From: a virus
Taxonomy: Duplodnaviria; Heunggongvirae; Uroviricota; Caudoviricetes
Length of the DNA: 34,113 bases
Reading direction: 5' to 3' (one strand)
Virus record (IMG/VR): IMGVR_UViG_2695420576_000005
Location: 1-34,113 of that record
Shown: piece by piece, positions 2,886 through 32,237 of the stretch
Numbering within the stretch: the first letter of the stretch is position 1
Layout: each line of letters opens with the position of its first letter
Made by a program: the position numbers and the translations under genes
The notes under the pieces: model-generated
What the model was told of the DNA's origin: nothing
The model's input: only the letters and a program-made list of their open reading frames with translations
The model's database searches: none

Positions 2886-5284
2886 TAGATTGACTCCCCC
2901 ATTTGTGCCTCAGTTAATTCTTTATGCCAAATGCGTAAATTTTTCACATGACCGAACAGGTGTCTGTTGCCACTGGATGATTGTCCACCGATATTAATAT
3001 TACCGGCAGTATAACGTTGCAATGTATGCAGAGACGGGGAGCTGCCACCTAAAATTCCATCAACAACAACCTGCAACTGTTTATCTTCTGTAAACTTAAA
3101 GCCAGTAACAAATTTCCTTTTCTCTCTATTCCCATATGCTTTATATTCTGTTTTTGTTCCTTTGCCATTGGTGATAATTAGCCTTTTACCACGAGTGGTA
3201 AAACCAAAATACATATAACTTTCATCAGAAACTTCAGTCGTCGCCCCTGTAATTGAGATATTAAGCAAACGCGCAGAGCCTTCTAAATTAGGCATTTCAG
3301 AATCCCAATTAACATTAACTTCCATGAGAACACTAACTGGTGGAGTTGCCCAATTGAAAGGTATAGGTATGATTACCTGGTCACTTGCTCTCGTGGCACC
3401 GACCTCTGTTGTGATGATAAAAGATGACGCGTTTAGTCCCTTTTCGAATTGAGGGGTTGTTAACATTAATTTATCGCCAGACTTGATTGATCGTTGATGT
3501 GCTCCAAACTCAAAACGCCCATACATATTTTTTGCTTCTGGTGATTTGTAGGTAAACTCAACACGAATCCATCCATTAGACTCTCTGAATATGTTATAAG
3601 TTGCCGCCTCACCTCCAGAATAACTCAACATATCGCCAGTCTCGCAATCAATATATGCGCCAGCGGTCAGTGTGTTACTTGAGCCATCGTCGTTAACATA
3701 TGATATTCTTGGACGCAACGTGATAATACCATCCCCACTTACTTTTTTAACTCTGCAGGATAAAGTAACTGATTCATTTGCCGAAACTGAAATAACCCTG
3801 GTATATCCAGTAGAAATTAATGTCGCCCTTTCAGTTGTGGATGTTTCTTTAACGCCAAACAAACCATAACTGAAACCATACTCATCAACTCCCGTGGTAA
3901 TAGTTAAGTTAGCAGTGTCATAGTTCCACGATACTGGTGTATTCGTATAAGAAAAAGTATTCGTTCTCTGACCTTCAATGAGCAGACCATCTTTTTCAAA
4001 ACGTGGTTCATTTATCGCTGATTCAGCAAAACACCCAGACTTATCTATATACGTTGCAGTTGACGCCCTGGTAAATGAAACAACCTTTTCAGACGGCAAT
4101 GCAATAACATCGTCACCAACTGTGATGCTCTTATATCCAGGAGCAAACCCGGTAATCATATCCAGTGAATCGTTAAACGGTATCCACACCTCAGGTAACG
4201 GCTGTAAGACATATTTATACGGCTCCGCAGCCTGGCTTGCGTACTCTCTGGCTGCATCTTCGCTTGCTTTAGCTGCCGTCTGGCTTGCTGCCGATGCTTT
4301 CGCTGAGTTCGCAGCCGCTGTTTCGCTCGCCTTTGCGTTGGTTTCACTGGTTTTTGCTGCTTTTTGACTGTTAGCTGATGCAGTGGCAGAAGCAGCCGCC
4401 GCACTTGCAGAACCAGCTGCAGCACTCTCGCTTTCAGCTGCTGCAGCCTGACTACTTTTCGCCGCAGTTTCACTGGCTTTGGCATTCGTTTCGCTGGTCT
4501 TCGCTGCTGTCTGGCTGGACTTTGCGTTAGTTTCACTCGTCTTCGCAGCTTTCTGGCTGTTAGCCGCAGCAGTTGCTGATCCGGCTGCTGAAGTCGCAGA
4601 ACCGGCCGCCGCACTCTCGCTGTCAGCTGCTGCATCCTGACTGCTTTTCGCCGCAGTTTCACTGGCTTTGGCATTCGTTTCGCTGGTTTTCGCTGCCGTC
4701 TGGCTGGACTTCGCGTTGGTTTCGCTCGTCTTTGCGGCTGTCTCACTGTTTTTCGCGTTGGTTTCTGATTTTTTGGCTGCAGTCGCGGAGTTTGCCGATG
4801 CAGTCTGTGAGGCCGCTGCCGCCTGTGCGCTGTTAGCTGCGTTCGTTTCTGAGGTTTTCGCCGCGTTCTTCGATGATGCCGCTGCTGTTTCGGATTTCTT
4901 TGCCGCCGCTGCGCTCTGAGAGGCGGCTTCAGCGTTGCGTGCCGCTTCTTCCACCATTTCCTCAAAACGACGCAATGCCTCCGGCATGACATCATCTTCC
5001 GTCATGGCACCGAGAAAATCATTCAGCGTCCCCGGCTTAGAATCTTCATACACGGTGATGGTCCCGGCATGTGAAGGCGGAAAACCTTCAACCAGCAGGA
5101 TAACGCTGTACTGGCCATACTCAACATCCATGCTGTAACGCCCGGCTTCATCCGGATTTTCAGAGGCCACCGTGTTCACCAGTACCGTGGTGCTGTTACG
5201 CTTTGCCTTCAGTTGAATAGTGCAGTTCTGTATTGGTTTTCCCGCACCATCTTTCAGCACACCTGAGATTTTTACTGCTGCCAT
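2885..5284 (-). CDS. stf: side tail fibre protein Stf (lambda-like N-terminus, Ala/Ser/Thr repeat shaft, divergent C-terminal domain)
   Basis: Track ORF 2885..5290 (801 aa). MAAVKISGVLKDGAGKPIQNCTIQLKA... is near-identical to the lambda Stf N-terminus; lambda-equivalent ATG at 5282-5284 with GGAG RBS. The C-terminal ~450 aa are unrelated to lambda Stf. Confidence 0.85.
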   Translation of the reverse strand: MAAVKISGVLKDGAGKPIQNCTIQLKAKRNSTTVLVNTVASENPDEAGRYSMDVEYGQYSVILLVEGFPPSHAGTITVYEDSKPGTLNDFLGAMTEDDVMPEALRRFEEMVEEAARNAEAASQSAAAAKKSETAAASSKNAAKTSETNAANSAQAAAASQTASANSATAAKKSETNAKNSETAAKTSETNAKSSQTAAKTSETNAKASETAAKSSQDAAADSESAAAGSATSAAGSATAAANSQKAAKTSETNAKSSQTAAKTSETNAKASETAAKSSQAAAAESESAAAGSASAAAASATASANSQKAAKTSETNAKASETAAANSAKASAASQTAAKASEDAAREYASQAAEPYKYVLQPLPEVWIPFNDSLDMITGFAPGYKSITVGDDVIALPSEKVVSFTRASTATYIDKSGCFAESAINEPRFEKDGLLIEGQRTNTFSYTNTPVSWNYDTANLTITTGVDEYGFSYGLFGVKETSTTERATLISTGYTRVISVSANESVTLSCRVKKVSGDGIITLRPRISYVNDDGSSNTLTAGAYIDCETGDMLSYSGGEAATYNIFRESNGWIRVEFTYKSPEAKNMYGRFEFGAHQRSIKSGDKLMLTTPQFEKGLNASSFIITTEVGATRASDQVIIPIPFNWATPPVSVLMEVNVNWDSEMPNLEGSARLLNISITGATTEVSDESYMYFGFTTRGKRLIITNGKGTKTEYKAYGNREKRKFVTGFKFTEDKQLQVVVDGILGGSSPSLHTLQRYTAGNINIGGQSSSGNRHLFGHVKNLRIWHKELTEAQMGESI
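4380..4760. repeat. 189-bp (63-codon) tandem direct repeat inside stf, two near-identical copies with degenerate flanking copies
   Basis: ttttcgccgcagtttcactggctttggcattcgtttcgctgg occurs at 4456 and again at 4645 (period 189 bp); the protein shows repeated AKTSETNAKSSQTAAKTSETNAKASETAAKSSQ blocks. Confidence 0.75.
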
Positions 5285-5348: not shown

Positions 5349-5948
5349 TCAGAACTTATAACCGACACCCACGATGAAACCGTCAGTGCGCCAGTCACCA
5401 CTGCCGGAGCCTTCATAAGCAATATCAATGGCCACGGATTCGGTCGGGTTAAACTGCACGCCAGCTCCCCACGCCAGAGACGTGTTGCTGTGGCGACCGT
5501 CATCACTTCCGGTCAGCACATCGTGCGTTTTCCCCTTGTTGTCAGTTACGCGGAGGTAATCCCCGGAAAAAGTCGAAACACGGCTGTAAGCCATACCCGC
5601 CATCGCATACGCGCTGAACCATTCATTCACGCGCACAGACGGCCCCGCCATCACGCTGAACCAGCGGTTACGCACGGAATCTTTATGCCAGCGGGTATCG
5701 CTGTAACGGGTCAGCTGACGATTCTTGTATCCTGCATAACTGAATGACGTCACCAGCCCCAGCGTGTCCGTAAATTCATAACGGTATTTCACGTTAATGC
5801 CCTTCAGGTCATCACTGCCTGGCATATCAGTATGGGTCTGAAGATACCCGGCGCTTAGTGTGGACTGATGCTCTGCTGCGCTCGCTGGCGTACCAGCGGC
5901 AACCAGCCAGACTACTGCGGACAGAATAACAGCACATAATTTACGCAT
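5349..5948 (-). CDS. lom: Lom/Ail/PagC-family outer membrane protein
   Basis: 199-aa ORF with signal peptide; C-terminus ...AYEGSGSGDWRTDGFIVGVGYKF matches lambda Lom; located directly after J as in lambda. Confidence 0.85.
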   Translation of the reverse strand: MRKLCAVILSAVVWLVAAGTPASAAEHQSTLSAGYLQTHTDMPGSDDLKGINVKYRYEFTDTLGLVTSFSYAGYKNRQLTRYSDTRWHKDSVRNRWFSVMAGPSVRVNEWFSAYAMAGMAYSRVSTFSGDYLRVTDNKGKTHDVLTGSDDGRHSNTSLAWGAGVQFNPTESVAIDIAYEGSGSGDWRTDGFIVGVGYKF

Positions 5949-6015: not shown

Positions 6016-9000
6016 TCAGCTGATACTGATGCCTGCAGTGGCTTTCTTCATCACAACAACCAGCAAATCGCTGATACTTGCTGTGGGATACCAACCATTT
6101 ACCCACCATGCTGATACAGAAAACTCCAGTGTCATTACACCACTGCCTGCAGGCATATCAATAACACCCGTGTAAATCAGAGTATTATCCAGAGCCGTTC
6201 GGTTATAAATTTCAGCCCCGTTTTTCTTCACTATCAGGCGGCATGACGAATAAGTATCGCTATTCTCCCGCTCATGTCTGGCACCGCAGAAAGCCCACCG
6301 CTGGAATAACAATTTGCCGGTCAAACGACTGATCGTCATAAACCCTGACGGTAATAGTCCCTGATGGCCACCGCTCCGGTGCACGGGAGTCCCGGGGGAA
6401 AGCTTTGCCCACTGTTTTAACGAGATCGCCTTCAATCTGGTTCGCGGACAGTTTTCCCAGAACCCGACAGTTCTCGTTAATCGTGACATTATTGAGCGTC
6501 CCGGAGTTCGCATTCACGTTACCGCTGATATCGGCATTTTTCGCCGTCAGCCGCCCGTCCGGTGTCAGGGAAAATACCGGAGGATTGCCGCCACTGGTAA
6601 TGGTGGGAGCCGTCAGATACTTCAGGAACACTTCGTTCATGAATATCTGGTTGCCCTGCGCCACAAACATCGGCGTTTCATTCCCGTTTGCCGGGTCAAT
6701 AAACGCGATACGGTTAGCGGCAACCAGGAACTGGCTCAGTTTGCCTTCCTCCGTATCCTCCATACTAAGGCCAAGCCCCGCGACATAATGCCTGCCGTCT
6801 TCGGTCTGCTCAATTTTGACGCCCCACATGGCATTCCATTTATCGTTGGCGTCCTTCCACTCTTTCGAAAACTCCTCCAGTTTGCTGGCGTTATCCTCCG
6901 TCAGCTCGACTTTTTCCAGCAGCTCCTTGCCGAGATGGGATTCGGTTATCTGGCCTTTGAAAAAATCCAGGTAACCTTCCGCATCATCGCTCGGCTGACC
7001 AACAGCCTCCACGAATGCCGATTTGCCAACGGTGTTCACACTGCGGATATAAAAGTAATAATCATGGCCCGGTTTGATATTGATACTGGCAGCTATCCAG
7101 TACAGCGCCGTACCAAGATAGCGGGCTGTGGTCTCAACCTGCCTGATATCGGTAATCCGCTTTTCCGAGAACCAGAACTCAAACTGTACCGTCGGATCAT
7201 AAACCGCAAGATGCGGCGTGGCAGTTATCTGAAAATAGCCCGGCGTCAGCTCAATCCGCGACGGCGCTGCCGGTGCGGCAATCCGGAACGATACCGATGC
7301 CGGATCGCCCTGCTGTCCCCACGCATTTACCGCCCGGACCGTCAGCGTGTAACGCCCCAGCGCCAGTTGCCTGAAGCGGTATGTGGTTTCCGTCGTCCTG
7401 GCCGTGCTGACCAGCCGCTCACTGCCGTCATCCGCTGCCACGGTCAGGCGAAGCATAAAGCTCACCCCCTTCACCACCTTCGGCGTATCCCAGCGCGCCA
7501 GCACCTGATACTCCCCGCTGTCTGAGGTGACTTCGGCAGTCAGGTGCTGCACCGCAGGCGGCGTGACACCATTCACCGTGCCGCTCTGGTCGCCGTCAAA
7601 GTGCGCCCCGTTATCCACGATGGCCTCTTTTTCCGGCACATGCTGCACGGCGGTGATGGCATACGTGCCGTCGTCGTTCTCACGGATACTCACGCAGCGG
7701 AACAGGCGCTGGCGCAGCGTCGGCAGCTTCAGCCCCCATACGCTGTATTCAGCAACACCGTCAGGAACACGGCTCACTTTTACCTTCACGCCGTCGGTGA
7801 CGGACTGAACCTCCACGCTGACCGGATTGCCACTTCCGTCAACCAGACTTATCAGCGTGGTACCGGAGGATGGCAGCGTGATTTCACGGTCGAGCGTCAG
7901 CGTCCGGGTCTGGCTGTTCACCGCCAGCACGCGCAAGCCGATGCTGATACCCGCATAGTCATCATCACAGATTTCAATGACATCCCCCGGTACATGGCGA
8001 AGCCCTTCCGCACCCACGCTGAAGTCCACGGTCTGCGTTTCCAGCAGTTCCGTTTTAATCAGCCACAGCCCGGCGCGGTGCGCCTGCCCCCGGCTGGTAC
8101 AGCCAAAGGCATCCATCTTCGTGACGTTACGACCGTAACGGGCAATGGCCTGCGTATCTTCAACAAGCTCTGTCGCCGTCTCCCAGCCGTTGTTCGGGTC
8201 AATCCAGTTCACCTCAACGGCATTATGGCGGTCCTTCAGGGCGCTGAAGCTGTAGCGGAACGGCGCGCCATCATCCGGCATCACCACATTACTGCGGTTA
8301 TAGGTCCACACCTTATCTGATGGTCGGTCCTGCACGAACGTCAGCGTCTGCCCGTTCCATACCGGCATACAGCGCATCGCCGAGCAGAAATCACTGAGCA
8401 CATCCCACGCCTTGCGCTGTGTGGTCAGCCAGGCATTACAGGTGATGCGCGGCTCCGTGCCACCAAAGCCATCCGGCACCGACTGGTCGCAATTCTGGCC
8501 GATGACATACAGCGCCCATTTGTCCACATCCGCCGCACCGAGACGCTTCCCCATGCCGTAGCGCGGATGGGTCAGCATATCCCACAGACACCAGGCCATG
8601 TTGTTGCTGTATGCTGGCTTAAACGTTCCGTCCCAGATACCGCTGTATTGTCGCGTCTGCGGGTTATAGTTCGACGGCACCTGCAGAATGCGCCCGCGAA
8701 GATGATAATTACGACTCACCTGCTGGCTGCCGAACTGCTCCGAGGGTCCACCTGTACGCTGACCAGTGCCGTGTTCGGGTAGCACTGTTTCACATCGATG
8801 ATTTCGGTGTATGACGACCAGAGCGTTTTGTTCTGCAGCTGGTCTGTGGTGCTGTCCGGCGTCATCCTGCGCATCCGGATATTAAACGGGCGCGGCGGCA
8901 GGTTATCCACCACCACCGAGGCCAGATACTGCGAGGTGGTTTTGCCTTTAATGGTGATGTCTTTTTCCGTCACCCAGCCACCGTTACGCTGTATCTGAAC

Positions 9001-11797: not shown

Positions 11798-14363
11798 CGT
11801 CCACCTCCGGAGAACAGACCACCATCACGCATCTGAGCCCGGTCACAACATCCATTGCCGCCTTACGGGCTACGTCATAAACAGCCTTCAGCGCCTGTGG
11901 CCCTATCTGACCGTTCGTGCCGTCGTTGTTAATCACCACATGGTTATTCTGCTCAAACGTCCCGGACGCCTGCGACCGACTGTCCGCCATGCTGCCCGGT
12001 GTACCGACATAACCGCCGGTGGCATAGCCGCGCATAAGCCGGTAAAGATTCCCCACGCCAATCCGGCTGGTTGCCTCCTTCGTGAAGACAAATTCACCAC
12101 GGTGAACAATCCCCGCTGGCTCATATTTGCCGCCGGTTCCCGTAAATCCTCCGGTCGCAAAATGGAATTTCGCCGCAGATGCCTGAATGGCTGTACCGCC
12201 TGACGCTGATGCACCGCCAATGACACTCCCGACACTCCCGACGATCCCCACCATTGCCTGCTTAAGCAGAATTTCTGTCATCATGGACAGCACGGAACGG
12301 GTGAAGCTGCGCCAGTTCTGTTCACTGCCGGTCAGCATCGCCGCCATATTCTGTGCAATACCATCAAAGGTCTGCGTGGCTGCACTTTTTACCTGCGACA
12401 TACTGTCCGTGGCGCTCTCTTCCCACTCACTCCAGCCGGACTTCAGGCCTGCCATCCAGTTCCCGCGAAGCTGGTCTTCAGCCGCCCAGGTCTTTTTCTG
12501 CTCTGACATGACGTTATTCAGCGCCAGCGGATTATCGCCATACTGTTCCTTCAGGCGCTGTTCCGTGGCGTCCCGCGCTGCCTGCCGGTCAGTCAGCCCC
12601 CGGTTTCAAGTCGCCTCAATGGCTGCCCGTTTTGCCCGTTGCTGCTGTGCGAATTTATCCGCCTGCTGCGCCAGCGCGTTCAGGTGCTCCTGATACGTGA
12701 CCTTATCGCCAAGTGCAGCCAGCTGGCGTTTGTACTCCAGCGTCTCATCTTTATGCGCCAGCAGGGATTTCTCCTGTGCGGACAGCTGGCGACGTTGCGC
12801 CGCCTCCTCCAGTACCGCGAACTGACTTTCCGCCTTCCACAAATCCCGGCGCTGCTGGCTGATTTTCTCATTCGCTCCGGCATGCTTCTCCAGTGTCCGG
12901 AGTTCTGCCTGAAGCGTCAGCAGGGCAGCATGAGCACTGTCTTCCTGACGATCGCCCGCAGACACTTTCACGCCGGACTGCTTCGGCTTTTTCAGCGTCG
13001 CTTCATAGTCCTTTTTCGCCGCCGCCATCAGCGTGTTGTAATCTGCCTGCAGGATTTTTCCGTCTTTCAGTGCCTTATTCAGTTCCTCCTGGCGGGCGGT
13101 ATATTTCTCCAGCGGTGTCTGCAGGCGTTCGTAAGCCTTCTGCGCCTCTTCGGTATATTTCAGCCGTGATGCCTCAGACGAGGCCCGATCTTTTGCTGCC
13201 ATCTCACTGGCCTTTTCAAGATCTGCCTGCAACGTGGCGGCTGAAAGCCCAAGTCGCGCATTCTCTCTCTTCTCCCATGCCCCCCGGAGATTGGCAAGAA
13301 ATGCTGACGTTTTACCGCGCCGGTGGCTTCGGCTCTGATACCACTGCCATTTTTTATCCGCTTCATCAAAAGCCTTTTCAGCTTTGGCGAGCATATCTGC
13401 AGAGGAGTCCGGGCGACCAATATCCAGCACCGCATCCCACATGGATTTGAATGCCTGTGCAGTCTTGTCTGCCCAGGTCTCCAGCGTACCCATGTTATCT
13501 TTCAGTTTACGGGTCTGGTCATCAAACCCTTTCGTTGCGGCCTCGTTCGCCGCCTGCAATGCCCCGGCCCCATCGCCGGAACGCTGCAACTGAGCAACAT
13601 ACGCAATCTGTTCCGCCGTCACGTTATGGAACTGGCGCGCCATCGCCGTCAACCCAGACGTCGGGTCAGTGGTCAGCTTCCCGAAGGCTTCAGCGACCTT
13701 GTCCACCTCCACGCCGGATGCAGAGGAGAAACGCGCCACACTCTGGCTGATTGCCTCAAACTGCTCACCACCACGCACACCGGCATTCACCAGCGCCGTC
13801 AGTGACTCGCTGGTCTGGTTAAACGTCAGCCCTGCCGCCTGCCCGGATCTGGACAGGGCCAGCATACGATCTGCCGTCAGTCCCGCCTGATTACCGGAAA
13901 GGACCAGCGTTTTATTGAAATTGGACAGGGTTGAGTCACCCTGATACCAGGCATACGCCAGCGCACCGGTCGCCACCGCCAGCGAAGTGATACCAACCAT
14001 CGGCAGGGTGATCGCACCGGCAAGCCCCCTGAACATGGGGATCATCCCGCCGAAGGAGTCCTTCACCTGACCACCCTGTTGCAGCAGGATGAGCCACGGA
14101 TTCTGCCCCCCTGCAAGCTGCGTGGCCACGTCGGTGAACTGCGCAGGCAGCATACGCATGGCAGCTTTATACTGCCCGACGGAAATCCCCGCTTTCTGTG
14201 CAGCCAGCGCCTGCCGGTTCATTGACTGTTCAACGACTGCCGCTGTTTTTTTCGCATCACTTTCCGTACCGGAAAAATGACGCCTGACTCTGGCCATCTG
14301 CTCGTCAAATCTGGCCGCATCCAGACTTAAATCAACGACCAGATCGCCTACCGGTTCAGCCAT
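11794..14363 (-). pseudogene. H: tail tape-measure protein H, interrupted by an in-frame TGA and a 3'-terminal frameshift
   Basis: ORFs 12606..14363 (585 aa) and 11718..12509 (263 aa) are in one frame separated by TGA at 12606-12608. The conserved C-terminus ...QMRDGGLFSGGGR* (stop 11794-11796, overlapping the M start as ATGA) lies in a different frame. Confidence 0.85.
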
Positions 14364-14823: not shown

Positions 14824-15198
14824 TCAGACGAGGGCCTGTTCAGGGGAATTATTCACCACAAACTCAGACATTCCGGACAGACGTAACACCACGTTTTCAG
14901 CCTGAGCAATTGCCTCCGTGGGCCAGGTGGTAAGCACTTCCTGCTCAATCTGCGTAATGGCTTCATTCATGGACGGCAGCTTTGTCTTCTGCGGATGGTT
15001 ATGCCACAGAGACATCGCCACCAGAAACGCCCCGCCTCTGATAAGATCCTCTACAGACACCTGCAGGTTGCCGCTGGATTCAGCCTTTTTTTCCTGCTCT
15101 TTCAACCAGGCAAGATGCTCAATACGCTGCAGGGCTGACAGTTCAGAAAGCGTGACGGTCACGCCGTTATGTTCAAATGATTCTGTTTTCAGGAACAT
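14824..15198 (-). CDS. G: tail assembly chaperone G, truncated: 3' end out of register with the slippery site
   Basis: 124-aa ORF MFLKTESFEHNGVTVTLSELSALQRIEHLA... matches lambda gpG (140 aa) but stops at TGA 14824-14826; the conserved tail SSDAGPAEPVSAGKCSS and GGGAAAG lie in the +1 frame. Confidence 0.75.
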   Translation of the reverse strand: MFLKTESFEHNGVTVTLSELSALQRIEHLAWLKEQEKKAESSGNLQVSVEDLIRGGAFLVAMSLWHNHPQKTKLPSMNEAITQIEQEVLTTWPTEAIAQAENVVLRLSGMSEFVVNNSPEQALV

Positions 15199-25386: not shown

Positions 25387-25680
25387 ATGAAAAAAATGTT
25401 GTTTTCTGCCGCTCTGGCAATGCTTATTACAGGATGTGCTCAACAGACGTTTACTGTTGGAAACAAACCGACAGCAGTAACACCAAAGGAAACCATCACC
25501 CATCATTTCTTCGTTTCGGGAATTGGACAGGAGAAAACTGGTGATGCAGCCAAAATTTGTGGCGGCGCAGAAAATGTTGTTAAAACAGAAACCCAGCAAA
25601 CATTCGTAAATGGATTGCTCGGTTTTATTACTTTAGGCATTTATACTCCGCTGGAAGCGCGTGTCTATTGCTCACAATAA
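25387..25680 (+). CDS. bor: Bor lipoprotein (serum-resistance lipoprotein family)
   Basis: Track ORF 25339..25680; lambda-equivalent start MKKMLFSAALAMLITGCAQQTFTV... (ATG 25387-25389, AGGA RBS); lipobox LITGC; 97 aa; opposite strand to the lysis genes as in lambda. Confidence 0.9.
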   Translation: MKKMLFSAALAMLITGCAQQTFTVGNKPTAVTPKETITHHFFVSGIGQEKTGDAAKICGGAENVVKTETQQTFVNGLLGFITLGIYTPLEARVYCSQ

Positions 25681-26261: not shown

Positions 26262-26759
26262 TCATTGTTGCCCCCACAAACAGACTTCACGCTCAATCTC
26301 ACGGCGAGTCATCAGCCCTTTCCATTGCTTACCGCCAGCGTATGTCCAGCGCCGTAGCTGATCACATGCGCCTTTGATATCGCCCTGGTTTATTTTGCGA
26401 AGAAGCGTCGATGTTCTGAAATTGCCAGCGCCCACGTTGTAAACGAATGAGTAAAGAGCGCCGCGCGTTGTTTCCGGTATATCGACTGTGATGTACGGGT
26501 TAATTTGTCTGGCGACAGTGGCAAGGTCTTTATTCAGGAGGGCTTTGCATTCTGCTTCGGTATACGTTTTACCGAGCATGATGTCTTTTCCGGTGTGTCC
26601 GTGACATACAGTCCATACGCCAACGATATCTTTGTATGGTATGTAGCTGACACCTTCCAGGCCATCGTCACCACTCGGACCAGTGATGAGCACAGACGCT
26701 ATGGCAACAGCCCCACCACCAATAGCAGCAGCAATAGCCTTGCGTAATGATGGCGACAT
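26262..26759 (-). CDS. R: SAR endolysin (phage-21 / T4-lysozyme-like muramidase with N-terminal signal-anchor-release segment)
   Basis: 165-aa ORF; N-terminal Gly/Ala-rich weak TM segment ([28 protein letters not shown]) followed by a lysozyme-like domain; not lambda R transglycosylase. Resembles phage 21 R / DLP12 RrrD by recall. Confidence 0.85.
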
Positions 26760-26974
26760 TATTCACCTCTCGCAGCCTTACGCTTATCTTCTTTAATCTT
26801 GAAATAAAGGTTTGTCAGATACGTCAGCAAGCCAAATACCAGACTACCCAGCACACCTATTGCCGCCCACTGTGAGGGCGTGACTTTATCGAGCAACTGT
26901 AAAAACCAGTACCCGGCACTACCTGCTGAGGTGCCATAGGCGACACCCGTTGTTAACTTATCCATGGATTTCAT
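26759..26974 (-). CDS. S: pinholin S (phage-21 type), dual-start MKSM motif
   Basis: 71-aa [74 protein letters not shown] with two TM segments and Met1/Met4 dual start, like S21 / DLP12 EssD. Confidence 0.85.
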
Positions 26975-27563: not shown

Positions 27564-28684
27564 ATGAAAAAATTAACAGTGGCAATTTCTGCTGTAGCTG
27601 CATCAGTACTGATGGCGATGTCTGCTCAGGCAGCTGAAATTTATAATAAAGACAGTAACAAGCTGGATCTATACGGGAAAGTTAATGCCAAGCACTACTT
27701 TTCCTCTAATGATGCAGATGATGGTGATACTACTTATGCCCGTCTTGGCTTCAAAGGTGAAACCCAAATCAACGATCAACTGACTGGTTTCGGTCAGTGG
27801 GAATATGAATTCAAAGGCAACCGTGCTGAATCTCAAGGTTCTTCCAAAGACAAAACCCGTCTTGCATTTGCAGGCCTGAAATTTGGTGATTACGGCTCAA
27901 TCGATTACGGCCGTAACTACGGTGTAGCATACGACATCGGTGCGTGGACTGACGTCCTGCCAGAATTCGGTGGTGATACCTGGACCCAAACAGATGTGTT
28001 CATGACTGGTCGCACTACTGGTGTTGCAACTTATCGTAACAACGACTTCTTTGGTCTGGTCGATGGCCTGAACTTTGCTGCTCAGTATCAGGGTAAAAAT
28101 GACCGCACTGACGTAACTGAAGCCAACGGTGATGGTTTCGGTTTCTCCACTACTTATGAGTATGAAGGATTCGGCGTGGGTGCAACCTATGCTAAATCAG
28201 ATCGCACTGACGGTCAGGTCGCCTATGGTAAGAGCAAATTCAATGCCTCCGGCAAAAATGCGGAAGTATGGGCTGCAGGCCTGAAATATGATGCGAACAA
28301 TATCTATCTGGCTACCACATATTCTGAAACTCAGAATATGACCGTTTTTGGTAATAACCATATTGCAAACAAAGCACAAAACTTTGAAGCAGTAGCACAA
28401 TATCAGTTTGACTTCGGTCTGCGACCATCTGTTGCTTACCTTCAGTCAAAAGGTAAAGACCTTGGTGTTCATGGTGACCGAGACTTAGTCAAGTATGTCG
28501 AGTCTTAGTCAAGTATGTCGATGTAGTCAAGTATGTCGATGTCGGTGCTACTTACTACTTTAATAAAAACATGTCCACTTTTGTTGATTACAAAATCAAC
28601 TTAATTGACGATAGTAAGTTTACCAAAACAGCTGGTATTGATACCGACGACATCGTCGCTGTAGGTCTGGTTTATCAGTTCTAA
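27564..28684 (+). pseudogene. nmpC: prophage-encoded OmpC/NmpC-family general porin, reading frame broken 60 codons from the 3' end
   Basis: ORF 27564..28508 (314 aa with signal peptide [23 protein letters not shown], then [16 protein letters not shown]...). Downstream in another frame is an intact porin C-terminus ...[54 protein letters not shown] (stop 28682-28684). Confidence 0.85.
28485..28539 (+). repeat. imperfect tandem triplication of a 16-20 nt unit (ttagtcaagtatgtcga) causing a 38-nt insertion in the porin gene
   Basis: Copies at 28485-28501, 28505-28521 and 28524-28539, separated by gtc and tg. Deleting 28486-28523 restores a continuous porin frame. Confidence 0.8.
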
Positions 28685-28705
28685 TCTGACTTACGAAAAA
28701 GATAT

Positions 28706-28731
28706 GTTGCGGGAGGCTTTGCCTCCGCAAC
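28706..28731. terminator. GC hairpin between the convergent porin and Q genes (candidate bidirectional terminator / tR')
   Basis: gttgcgggaggc-ttt-gcctccgcaac stem-loop; on the minus strand it is followed by ATATCTTTTT; lies 22 nt after the ancestral porin stop. Confidence 0.45.
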
Positions 28732-28821
28732 ATATAAGTGGAGCCCTCAAGCCACTTCCTTTAGAAGCACTACCTTGCTTCTTACTATATAAACCTTCTG
28801 TTATATATTACCCTTTATTTT

Positions 28822-28872: not shown

Positions 28873-29256
28873 TCAATTAGAATTATTAGCAACGATATCC
28901 ATATCTAACCGGATATCTAATGCCATTAACATCCCTTCAATTATGCCCTCAGCCTTCTGTAACCTTTTCCCGATATAACCATCCGAGCAGCAATGCTTAC
29001 TTGCCAGTGACATGAATGTCATACCACATACATAATAATCTACTAATAAATCGTGTAAATCGCTGTTGTTCTTTTTCAGACGGGCCATGCACCCGCAAAT
29101 GATCATCGCGTCATCGTCACAACATTGCGGGCGAGATTTTACTTTTGAAGGAATTAATCCCTTAAAACCGGCGGCAACGGACGACCAGGTCACATCTTCA
29201 TGATTATTAGCCGCCCACGCTCCCCAACGCTCAAGAACCATCTGAATATCACGCAT
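28873..29256 (-). CDS. Q: late-gene antiterminator Q (DLP12 QuuD / phage-82-type)
   Basis: Track ORF 28873..29271; likely start [24 protein letters not shown]... (ATG 29254-29256, GGAG RBS); Cys-rich zinc-binding region [19 protein letters not shown]; positioned immediately upstream of the lysis region. Confidence 0.8.
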
Positions 29257-29482: not shown

Positions 29483-29841
29483 TCATCTCCCAGTTCGGTG
29501 ATGGTCAGCTCCAGCTTCCCACCTTTGGTAACGGGCATCTTCACAACACGGTAATCAACGACCTGAATATCATCCAGCCAGAAACCTGCTTTGGTGAGTG
29601 CGTCAAAAGCGGCTTTTTGCAGATTATCCAGGTCACGGCGACGGCGATCCGGCATGTGGCACTCAATACGGATTTTAAAAGGCATAGCCAAGCCGATATC
29701 CAGCATTGCGTTTTTAATGATTCGGGCGACGTTATCGCAGTATGCCTGCCCCTCTGCGCTGACGTGCGTGCGCCCACGATTATGGCGGTAATAGCGATTA
29801 TTGCTCGGAGGCCAAGGTAATGTGATGCTGTAGGTATTCAC
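29479..29841 (-). CDS. rusA: Holliday junction resolvase RusA
   Basis: 120-aa [94 protein letters not shown]..., RusA family. Confidence 0.9.
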
Positions 29842-31229: not shown

Positions 31230-32237
31230 TTGTATGGTATGTCAATGGCCATGTCGGTCGGGAGTTGTGCAACACCTGTCCAGACTAATTTTCCTGGTTA
31301 CACCCCGGGTGCAGATATCATTAGTGTTTCACCCACCAGAAACCAGGTCGATCTCATTGGTGATGTTGTTTATTCCCAGATAAAAGGAACTCGTTCTGTC
31401 AGACAGCTTCACATGTCAGTTCTTGTCCCGCGAACAAATGATTTAAAACCAGCCATTATTTATTATCCCGGCGGCGGATTCATGTCTTCTGAACATGACA
31501 AATTTATTGAAATGAGAATGGCTCTGGCTGAAGCTGGTTTTGTTGTGGCCGCTGTAGAATACAGAACAATTCCTGATACATTTCCAGCACCAGTTGAGGA
31601 TGGGAAAGCTGCAATACGTTACTTGAGAGAACATGCCAGCGATTATGGGATTGATCCTCAAAGAATCGGAGTTCTGGGTGACTCTGCCGGTGGATGGCTT
31701 GCCCAGATGATGGGAACTACAAATGGTGACAAAACCTTTAATAAAGGTGACTTTCTTCAGCAATCAGCAGATGTTCAGGCAGTTGCCACACTTTATGGGA
31801 TTTCTGACTTGTTGAATATTGGCGAGGGGTTCCCTGAATCAGTGCAGGAGGTTCATCGATCTCCTGCCGTAACCGAAGCCTTAATGATCAATGGCCCTGC
31901 ATTCAGAAGTTTTGCGGGAGCCCCCATAACAGCGTCAAAAGAAAAAGCGCTAAACGCCAGTCCAATCGGACATATGAAAGGAGTAAAACCCCCATTTCTT
32001 ATTATGCATGGTAGCAAAGACACTCTGGTTTCACCTGAGCAAAGCGCCAAACTATTCAGGATGTTGAAGAAGAACGGCGATAACGCTGAGTACGTTCTGG
32101 TAGAAGGGGCTGAGCATGGCGATAATACATGGTATCAGCCAATTATTATAAACAGAGTTGTTGAGTGGTTTACTAAAAACCTGGGAACCCCCATAAAAAC
32201 CGCTACCCAACAACAAAAAACAAACGCTGACCTGTAA
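31230..32237 (+). CDS. alpha/beta-hydrolase-fold esterase/lipase (HSL-type, GDSAGG nucleophile elbow); N-terminus/start unresolved
   Basis: Track ORF 31230..32237 (TTG start, 335 aa) with YYPGGGF oxyanion-hole-like motif and GDSAGG serine motif. The frame is open back to TAA at 31188-31190 and encodes a lipoprotein-like signal (KILSSATLLYGMSMAMSVGSC) without a clean ATG. Confidence 0.7.
   Translation: MYGMSMAMSVGSCATPVQTNFPGYTPGADIISVSPTRNQVDLIGDVVYSQIKGTRSVRQLHMSVLVPRTNDLKPAIIYYPGGGFMSSEHDKFIEMRMALAEAGFVVAAVEYRTIPDTFPAPVEDGKAAIRYLREHASDYGIDPQRIGVLGDSAGGWLAQMMGTTNGDKTFNKGDFLQQSADVQAVATLYGISDLLNIGEGFPESVQEVHRSPAVTEALMINGPAFRSFAGAPITASKEKALNASPIGHMKGVKPPFLIMHGSKDTLVSPEQSAKLFRMLKKNGDNAEYVLVEGAEHGDNTWYQPIIINRVVEWFTKNLGTPIKTATQQQKTNADL

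Follow-up and report, generated by a model that had tools for sequence, protein, structure and literature searches.

A Three-Copy Tandem Array Interrupting a Prophage Porin Gene in a Single Escherichia coli Draft Assembly

The Prophage Porin Gene and Its Neighbours

The window analyzed here is the whole 34,113-nt stretch of DNA deposited as IMG/VR virus record IMGVR_UViG_2695420576_000005, and includes a lambdoid prophage that is inserted at icd and adjoins sitABCD. A disrupted porin gene of the Lc/NmpC type, belonging to the OmpC family, is located at 27564–28684 on the plus strand and would encode 360 aa without 38 extra nucleotides. On one side it is flanked by the gene for antiterminator Q (quuD-like; 28873–29256), and on the other by the holin gene (essD-like; 26759–26974), next to the lysozyme gene (26262–26759), all on the minus strand. 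The Q and holin sequences are identical to those of the relatives, and the porin strand is opposite to that of Q and of the holin/lysozyme/Rz cassette. The initial annotation of the gene as a prophage porin is borne out by the OmpC-family homology and by this slot between Q and the lysis cassette.

As written, the open reading frame is truncated (27564–28508, plus strand; 314 aa): the start codon and signal peptide are intact and are followed by AEIY, whereas the product ends in DLVKYVES at a premature TAG stop (28506–28508). Pfam domains Porin_1 (PF00267) and Porin_4 (PF13609) are still recognized in the truncated product. When 28502–28539 is deleted in silico, a 360-aa frame without internal stops is obtained, ending in GLVYQF. 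A plus-strand remnant encoding the native C-terminus (28540–28684; TAA at 28682–28684) is retained downstream out of frame, as had been claimed; translated in frame 2, it gives the same C-terminal sequence as the restored protein. Thus, the C-terminal beta-signal (VYQF) is absent in frame from the gene as written, and is present only once the 38 nt are removed.

The frameshift hits a conserved segment, and the last 49 residues are lost, the terminal Phe included. In the OmpF/OmpC fold, these residues would be approximately the final three strands, together with loop L8 and the C-terminal Phe on which assembly depends, and in the window these three strands are out of frame. The truncated porin could not form a 16-strand barrel. 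In searches against the PDB, the restored protein aligns end to end with the structures of OmpC, OmpK36, PhoE and OmpF, and the match to OmpC (2xe2; E=5.8e-137) pairs query residues 24–360 with chain residues 1–343. Similarity to the chromosomal porins OmpC, OmpF and PhoE (2xe2, 2j1n, 1pho and 1opf) extends from mature residue 1 to YQF, with E-values of about 1e-137 to 1e-119; unlike these, the porin here is carried by a prophage and possesses distinct loop sequences. The database names for the porin cluster are 'outer membrane porin protein LC' or 'porin OmpC'.

The Lc porin of lambdoid phage PA-2 and the NmpC porin of the defective prophage DLP12 (Blasband, Marcotte and Schnaitman, 1986, as cited in PMC11677980) occupy the same slot between Q and the holin/lysozyme/Rz genes, likewise on the opposite strand. 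The restored protein shares 91% amino-acid identity with K-12 NmpC over 347 residues. The DLP12 NmpC protein has 365 aa when intact, whereas the allele here is of the 360-aa type common in B2-type strains; NmpC is interrupted by IS5, and the porin here by a 38-nt insertion.

The porin and Q genes converge, and the interval separating them contains, just past the porin stop codon, a GC-rich and nearly perfect inverted repeat seen by eye at 28701–28734 (ATATGTTGCGGGAGGC ttt GCCTCCGCAACATAT), which is presumably a terminator. Elsewhere, the prophage carries as morons the iss/bor serum-resistance lipoprotein gene (25387–25680), an Ail/Lom outer-membrane protein gene (5349–5948) and, between ybcN and the ybcK recombinase gene, an alpha/beta hydrolase gene (31245–32237).

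Structure of the Three-Copy Array

The 16-mer TAGTCAAGTATGTCGA is present in three exact copies in the 34-kb window (28486–28501, 28506–28521 and 28524–28539; 0 mismatches). The number of matches expected from 100 dinucleotide shuffles is 0.02, and none of the 100 shuffles reached three. Copies 1 (28485–28501) and 2 (28505–28521) extend to the 17-mer TTAGTCAAGTATGTCGA, and are separated by the spacer GTC (28502–28504); the spacer TG (28522–28523) precedes copy 3 (28524–28539). The offsets between copies are 20 and 18 nt, which add up to the 38 extra nucleotides, and the premature stop falls inside copy 2. Exact matching, TRF analysis and ORF translation all agree with the earlier description of three copies, 38 extra nt and a TAG at 28506. 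By contrast, the interval originally given for the feature (28485–28523) covers the extra part but is too narrow, as the whole imperfect array spans 28485–28539 on the plus strand.

By TRF, the array is assigned to 28479–28542 with a period of 20, 3.2 copies and a score of 94; an alternative period of 18 has a score of 89. The period-18 stretch (28506–28542) is exact, and the period-20 stretch (28479–28521) has one mismatch (A28483 versus T28503). The junction k-mers of the array are GTCGAGTCTTAGTC and TCGATGTAGTCA, and the contiguous, non-array form is GTATGTCGATGTCGG. At the duplication bounds, microhomology amounts to 3 nt for the 20-nt unit and 1 nt for the 18-nt unit. Because two different periods and one mismatch occur within 60 nt, at least three steps or one complex event are needed to produce the array. 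The view that the copies look like replication slippage may hold: the 3-nt and 1-nt microhomologies fit it, and the unequal periods and the mismatch would call for several steps or a complex event.

At the 3' edge of the array (28533–28544), the ancestral sequence already forms a perfect two-unit tandem hexamer, ATGTCG-ATGTCG, which could favour misalignment, whether in vivo or in silico.

Distribution of the Three-Copy and Intact Alleles

The exact 314-aa product is recorded on one contig, AOQH01000090.1 of the NCBI draft assembly GCA_000397345.1, and the deposited contig matches the window as an exact substring of it. At least 1000 contigs have the exact restored 360-aa product. In 5,426 complete E. 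coli genomes, the porin 3' region is matched with at least 99% identity by 772 records, and the matches listed are all 38 nt shorter. A 71-mer spanning the junction has no match in the same 5,426 genomes, not even a shared 28-mer; DUST masking was excluded as the cause of this null result, as the query finds itself with DUST on. A pattern for two or more copies, allowing either junction type, has no match in IMG/VR, the GTDB species representatives or the JGI metagenomes. The single-copy locus is well represented in IMG/VR (440 relatives), a control that applies to the IMG/VR scan alone. Since all close relatives are single-copy, the array is a derived insertion, and it is a singleton.

All 80 IMG/VR loci with a 99–100% identical N-terminus are single-copy and retain the 360-aa frame. 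Of the records with at least 95% identity at the porin 3' region, 916 of 917 cover at least 80% of the region. Ten more divergent alleles (86–93% nucleotide identity), taken at even steps through the ranking of 3,142 complete-genome records, are all annotated as full-length and non-pseudogene, and by sequence encode 360 or 365 aa ending in VYQF. Essentially all natural E. coli lineages in the sample thus retain an intact porin, even in decayed prophages.

In E. coli 67-1 (NZ_CP035826.1), an intact 360-aa porin is found in a prophage remnant with truncations in the lysozyme gene and its neighbours, a hint at maintenance of the porin and not at selection against it. In phage 3W (OM475430.1, 1004–2147), the porin is annotated as two overlapping CDSs and was considered as an independent lesion; the sequence holds an intact 360-aa ORF, and the split is an annotation quirk.

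These distributions bear on the idea that the array is a contingency locus, toggling the porin by gain or loss of repeat units. One point in its favour is that the wild-type gene would be recovered exactly by a deletion between the perfect 16-nt direct repeats (28486 and 28524). However, the repeat units differ in length (20 and 18 nt) and are imperfect, and single-unit losses would have dissimilar outcomes: without the 18-nt unit the frame would still be shifted, and without the 20-nt unit a 6-aa insertion would remain. Moreover, the ancestral state is a single copy without a repeat tract, and the other genomes and metagenomes searched contain neither 2- nor 3-copy alleles and hence give no indication that copy number switches. 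A reversible switch is therefore extremely improbable. Of the 1-, 2- and 3-copy alleles that the initial annotation proposed to look for in relatives, the single-copy form is the one present throughout those surveyed, and no multi-copy junction occurs in the four collections; the suggestion of reversibility likewise finds no support, given constant copy number and non-identical units.

Private Lesions Across the Source Contig

The nearest complete relative of the window is the genome of strain GN02350. The source contig was compared with this and two further independent complete genomes, which come from different countries (GN02350, USA; UPEC132, China; MS20658, Finland), over 42,563 nt. This span consists of the window and 8.45 kb of core chromosome on the same contig, and represents 42.6 of the 55.7 kb of that contig. 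Over it, 35 lesion clusters are private to the source, corresponding to about 0.8 per kb, and at each of them the three relatives agree against the source. Among themselves, the relatives differ by 12 single-base changes and no indels. Ordinary strain divergence is ruled out by this agreement at all 35 clusters.

The private lesions include 14 insertion events and no deletions, and comparison with each relative shows an identical set of 35 extra bases; for 14 of 14 indels to be insertions has a two-sided p of about 1e-4. A consistent length difference is seen in the tail genes, for which four complete genomes have identical scores, each with 9,988 bases against the 10,001-base query. Private substitutions comprise 12 transitions and 25 transversions, or 5 and 22 without three ordinary-looking polymorphic clusters, and nearly all of those in coding sequence are non-synonymous. 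In addition to insertions that are short re-copies (+GG, +GC, +AC and +GTT), there are untemplated replacements (T to CAAG; TCT to GACGAGG) and tandem substitutions (CC to AA; TC to GA; CACT to AAAA). A longer imperfect tandem duplication of 9 nt in sitD (462–470), with TTTTTTCTG next to TTTTTGCTG, adds FLF in frame.

In total, J, H, G, Rz, sitA and the porin are broken by private lesions. The tail-tip gene J has two frameshifts (+1 at 6294 and +2 at 8744–8745); the tape-measure gene H is frameshifted, with a +2 lesion at 11835–11836 and a +3 complex lesion at 12607–12610; the chaperone gene G is frameshifted by a +4 complex lesion near the G/T overlap (14827–14833); the Rz start codon is changed from ATG to CTG (26173); and sitA is frameshifted. 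With J, H and G broken, the prophage as written could not make tails.

The prophage has about 0.8 lesions per kb, and the core chromosome about 1 per kb. The 9.3-kb core-chromosome part, which includes sitABCD, bluF/R and ymg genes, matches the prophage in lesion types and density, and prophage-specific decay is thereby ruled out. At the contig rate, a 1,083-nt gene is expected to bear 0.89 lesions, and the probability of at least one is about 0.59.

Some of the complex lesions had by eye suggested a quasi-palindrome or template-switch origin (13180–81, 14827–33 and 29677–80). At the last of these, CACT of all relatives is replaced in rusA by AAAA (29677–29680), which makes a perfect palindrome, TTTTAAAA. 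This origin is unsupported by a randomization test: when 11 lesions were compared with randomized replacements for templating from nearby direct or inverted sequence, none was significant after correction for multiple testing, the best score being that of 29677–29680 (nominal p about 0.013).

Porin Loss and Selection

The K-12 lineage provides a parallel that the initial annotation took as a pointer to recurrent selection against expression of this porin. The nmpC::IS5 arrangement in K-12 has been described, and nmpC expression raises sensitivity to colicins and phages (PMC11677980). In a K-12-type genome, homology to the porin extends as far as FTK, the counterpart of residue 342, and gives way to IS5, in accordance with the statement that nmpC of DLP12 is inactivated near its 3' end by this element. 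As in the gene here, the lesion is 3'-proximal and the C-terminal strand and terminal Phe are lost. In contrast, nmpC::IS5 loses the last 18 residues whereas the porin here loses 49, and nmpC::IS5 is fixed lineage-wide in K-12 derivatives whereas the three-copy allele is a singleton in one draft assembly.

According to an explanation by adaptive loss, the porin would be repeatedly inactivated near its 3' end, by IS5 in K-12 and by the duplication here, because its expression carries a cost, such as sensitivity to phages or colicins. The break in K-12 nmpC after the residue equivalent to 342 is in line with this. However, the 80 IMG/VR loci, the ten divergent alleles and 916 of the 917 records with at least 95% identity have the porin intact; it is kept intact even in degraded prophage remnants; and two lesions in more than 2,500 genomes do not amount to recurrence. 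Outside the K-12 lineage, recurrent inactivation was not seen among the 80 loci and ten divergent alleles, the K-12 IS5 allele standing alone. Furthermore, the contig-wide lesion rate fully explains the porin lesion: its neighbours J, H, G, Rz and sitA are also broken in the source contig. Because the lesion is expected by chance, it carries no information about selection on the porin. Adaptive loss is thus very unlikely as an explanation of the array, and there is no evidence for porin-specific selection. The proposal of recurrent selection is not upheld by a singleton allele surrounded by intact relatives and accompanied by 35 private lesions across the contig. The survey of the porin is more consistent with maintenance than with counter-selection.

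Origin of the Array

The array is probably of technical origin: an error of consensus calling or assembly in a draft of low quality or low coverage. The porin gene is in other respects unremarkable and is conserved very widely. The 38-nt insertion consists of imperfect re-copies of local sequence, 20 nt and then 18 nt, and was not aimed at the porin, being one among about 35 lesions private to one draft assembly. These lesions occur in the prophage and in the adjacent core chromosome alike, with no filtering by selection. Their spectrum is unnatural, with insertions only, short imperfect tandem duplications, untemplated multi-base replacements and an excess of transversions. The private lesion pattern suggests that GCA_000397345.1 is a low-quality draft. 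A literature search for this assembly accession gave no match.

Viability is one consideration that favours a technical origin. If 0.8 lesions per kb, about 40% of them indels, were present genome-wide (about 4,000 lesions, as extrapolated from one contig), about a fifth of genes would be disabled, essential genes included. Such gene loss would be incompatible with a living isolate. An assembly artefact, named at the outset as what would overturn the biological reading, is now the leading explanation because of the 35 private lesions, a circumstantial argument. False tandem duplications and insertion-biased errors in drafts resemble the present lesions in being private, insertion-only and often short local re-copies; draft consensus errors, likewise, have a uniform density regardless of gene content and are unfiltered by selection, a match that is also circumstantial.

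Some features are less easily reconciled with an error. Assemblers usually collapse repeats and seldom invent them. As the junction k-mers of the array are absent from the ancestral sequence, an artefact would presuppose faulty reads or wrongly joined contigs. Also, the ancestral tandem hexamer and short repeats make genuine slippage mechanistically plausible, which is a point against an artefact.

A genuine but unselected mutation is accordingly to be weighed. The array might result from complex serial replication slippage or a template switch at a repeat-rich site, amid an unselected, insertion-biased burst of mutation: a 20-nt duplication with 3 nt of microhomology, an 18-nt duplication with 1 nt, and one base change would make the porin a true, very recent and selectively neutral pseudogene. 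The intrinsic tandem hexamer and short repeats at the site are suggestive of this, the junction microhomologies fit slippage, and the novel junction sequences argue against simple mis-assembly of a repeat. Short tandem duplications recur elsewhere among the private lesions (+9 in sitD, +GC, +AC, +GTT and +GG). As the prophage genes and sitABCD are dispensable, none of the visible gene breaks would be lethal. On the other hand, the indels are insertions in 14 of 14 cases, and the substitutions show no filtering and an abundance of transversions; we know of no familiar in vivo mutator spectrum that matches this pattern. In addition, as the core chromosome has an equal density, lesions would number in the thousands across the genome; the complex lesions show no significant templating from adjacent direct or inverted sequence, and the three-copy allele is absent from all other recorded assemblies. 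A genuine private mutation is therefore conceivable yet rather unlikely.

A broader form of the same idea, that the lesions are real and that the source isolate, or at least 43 kb of its chromosome, was hit by an insertion-biased, transversion-rich and partly duplicative burst, is doubtful. It is similarly doubtful that such a burst, at about 0.8 events per kb, left the porin array as preserved multi-step replication slippage. Were the lesions real, this pattern of mutation in vivo would be unusual for a natural B2 E. coli strain, and the object of interest would be the genome-wide mutational signature, not the porin.

With technical error as the favoured origin, the feature is most likely not real biology; if real, it would be an ordinary private pseudogene. 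The earlier observation and its molecular consequence hold, whereas the biological reading, selection and reversibility, does not. The case also provides a caution, in that a single-gene pseudogene story collapses once neighbouring genes are compared with close relatives.

Repeated Segments and Private Differences

Five private clusters lie within about 200 nt of a duplicated icd 3' fragment at the edge of the prophage, 3.5–3.7 kb to the left of the window start. Lesions at this icd' fragment are more crowded than in other parts, which may be due to repetition of the segment within the genome. Within the window, the tail-fibre region has an internal repeat of about 264 nt with 83% identity (4298–4561 versus about 4503–4764), inside which private single-base differences are found at 4436, 4472 and 4622.
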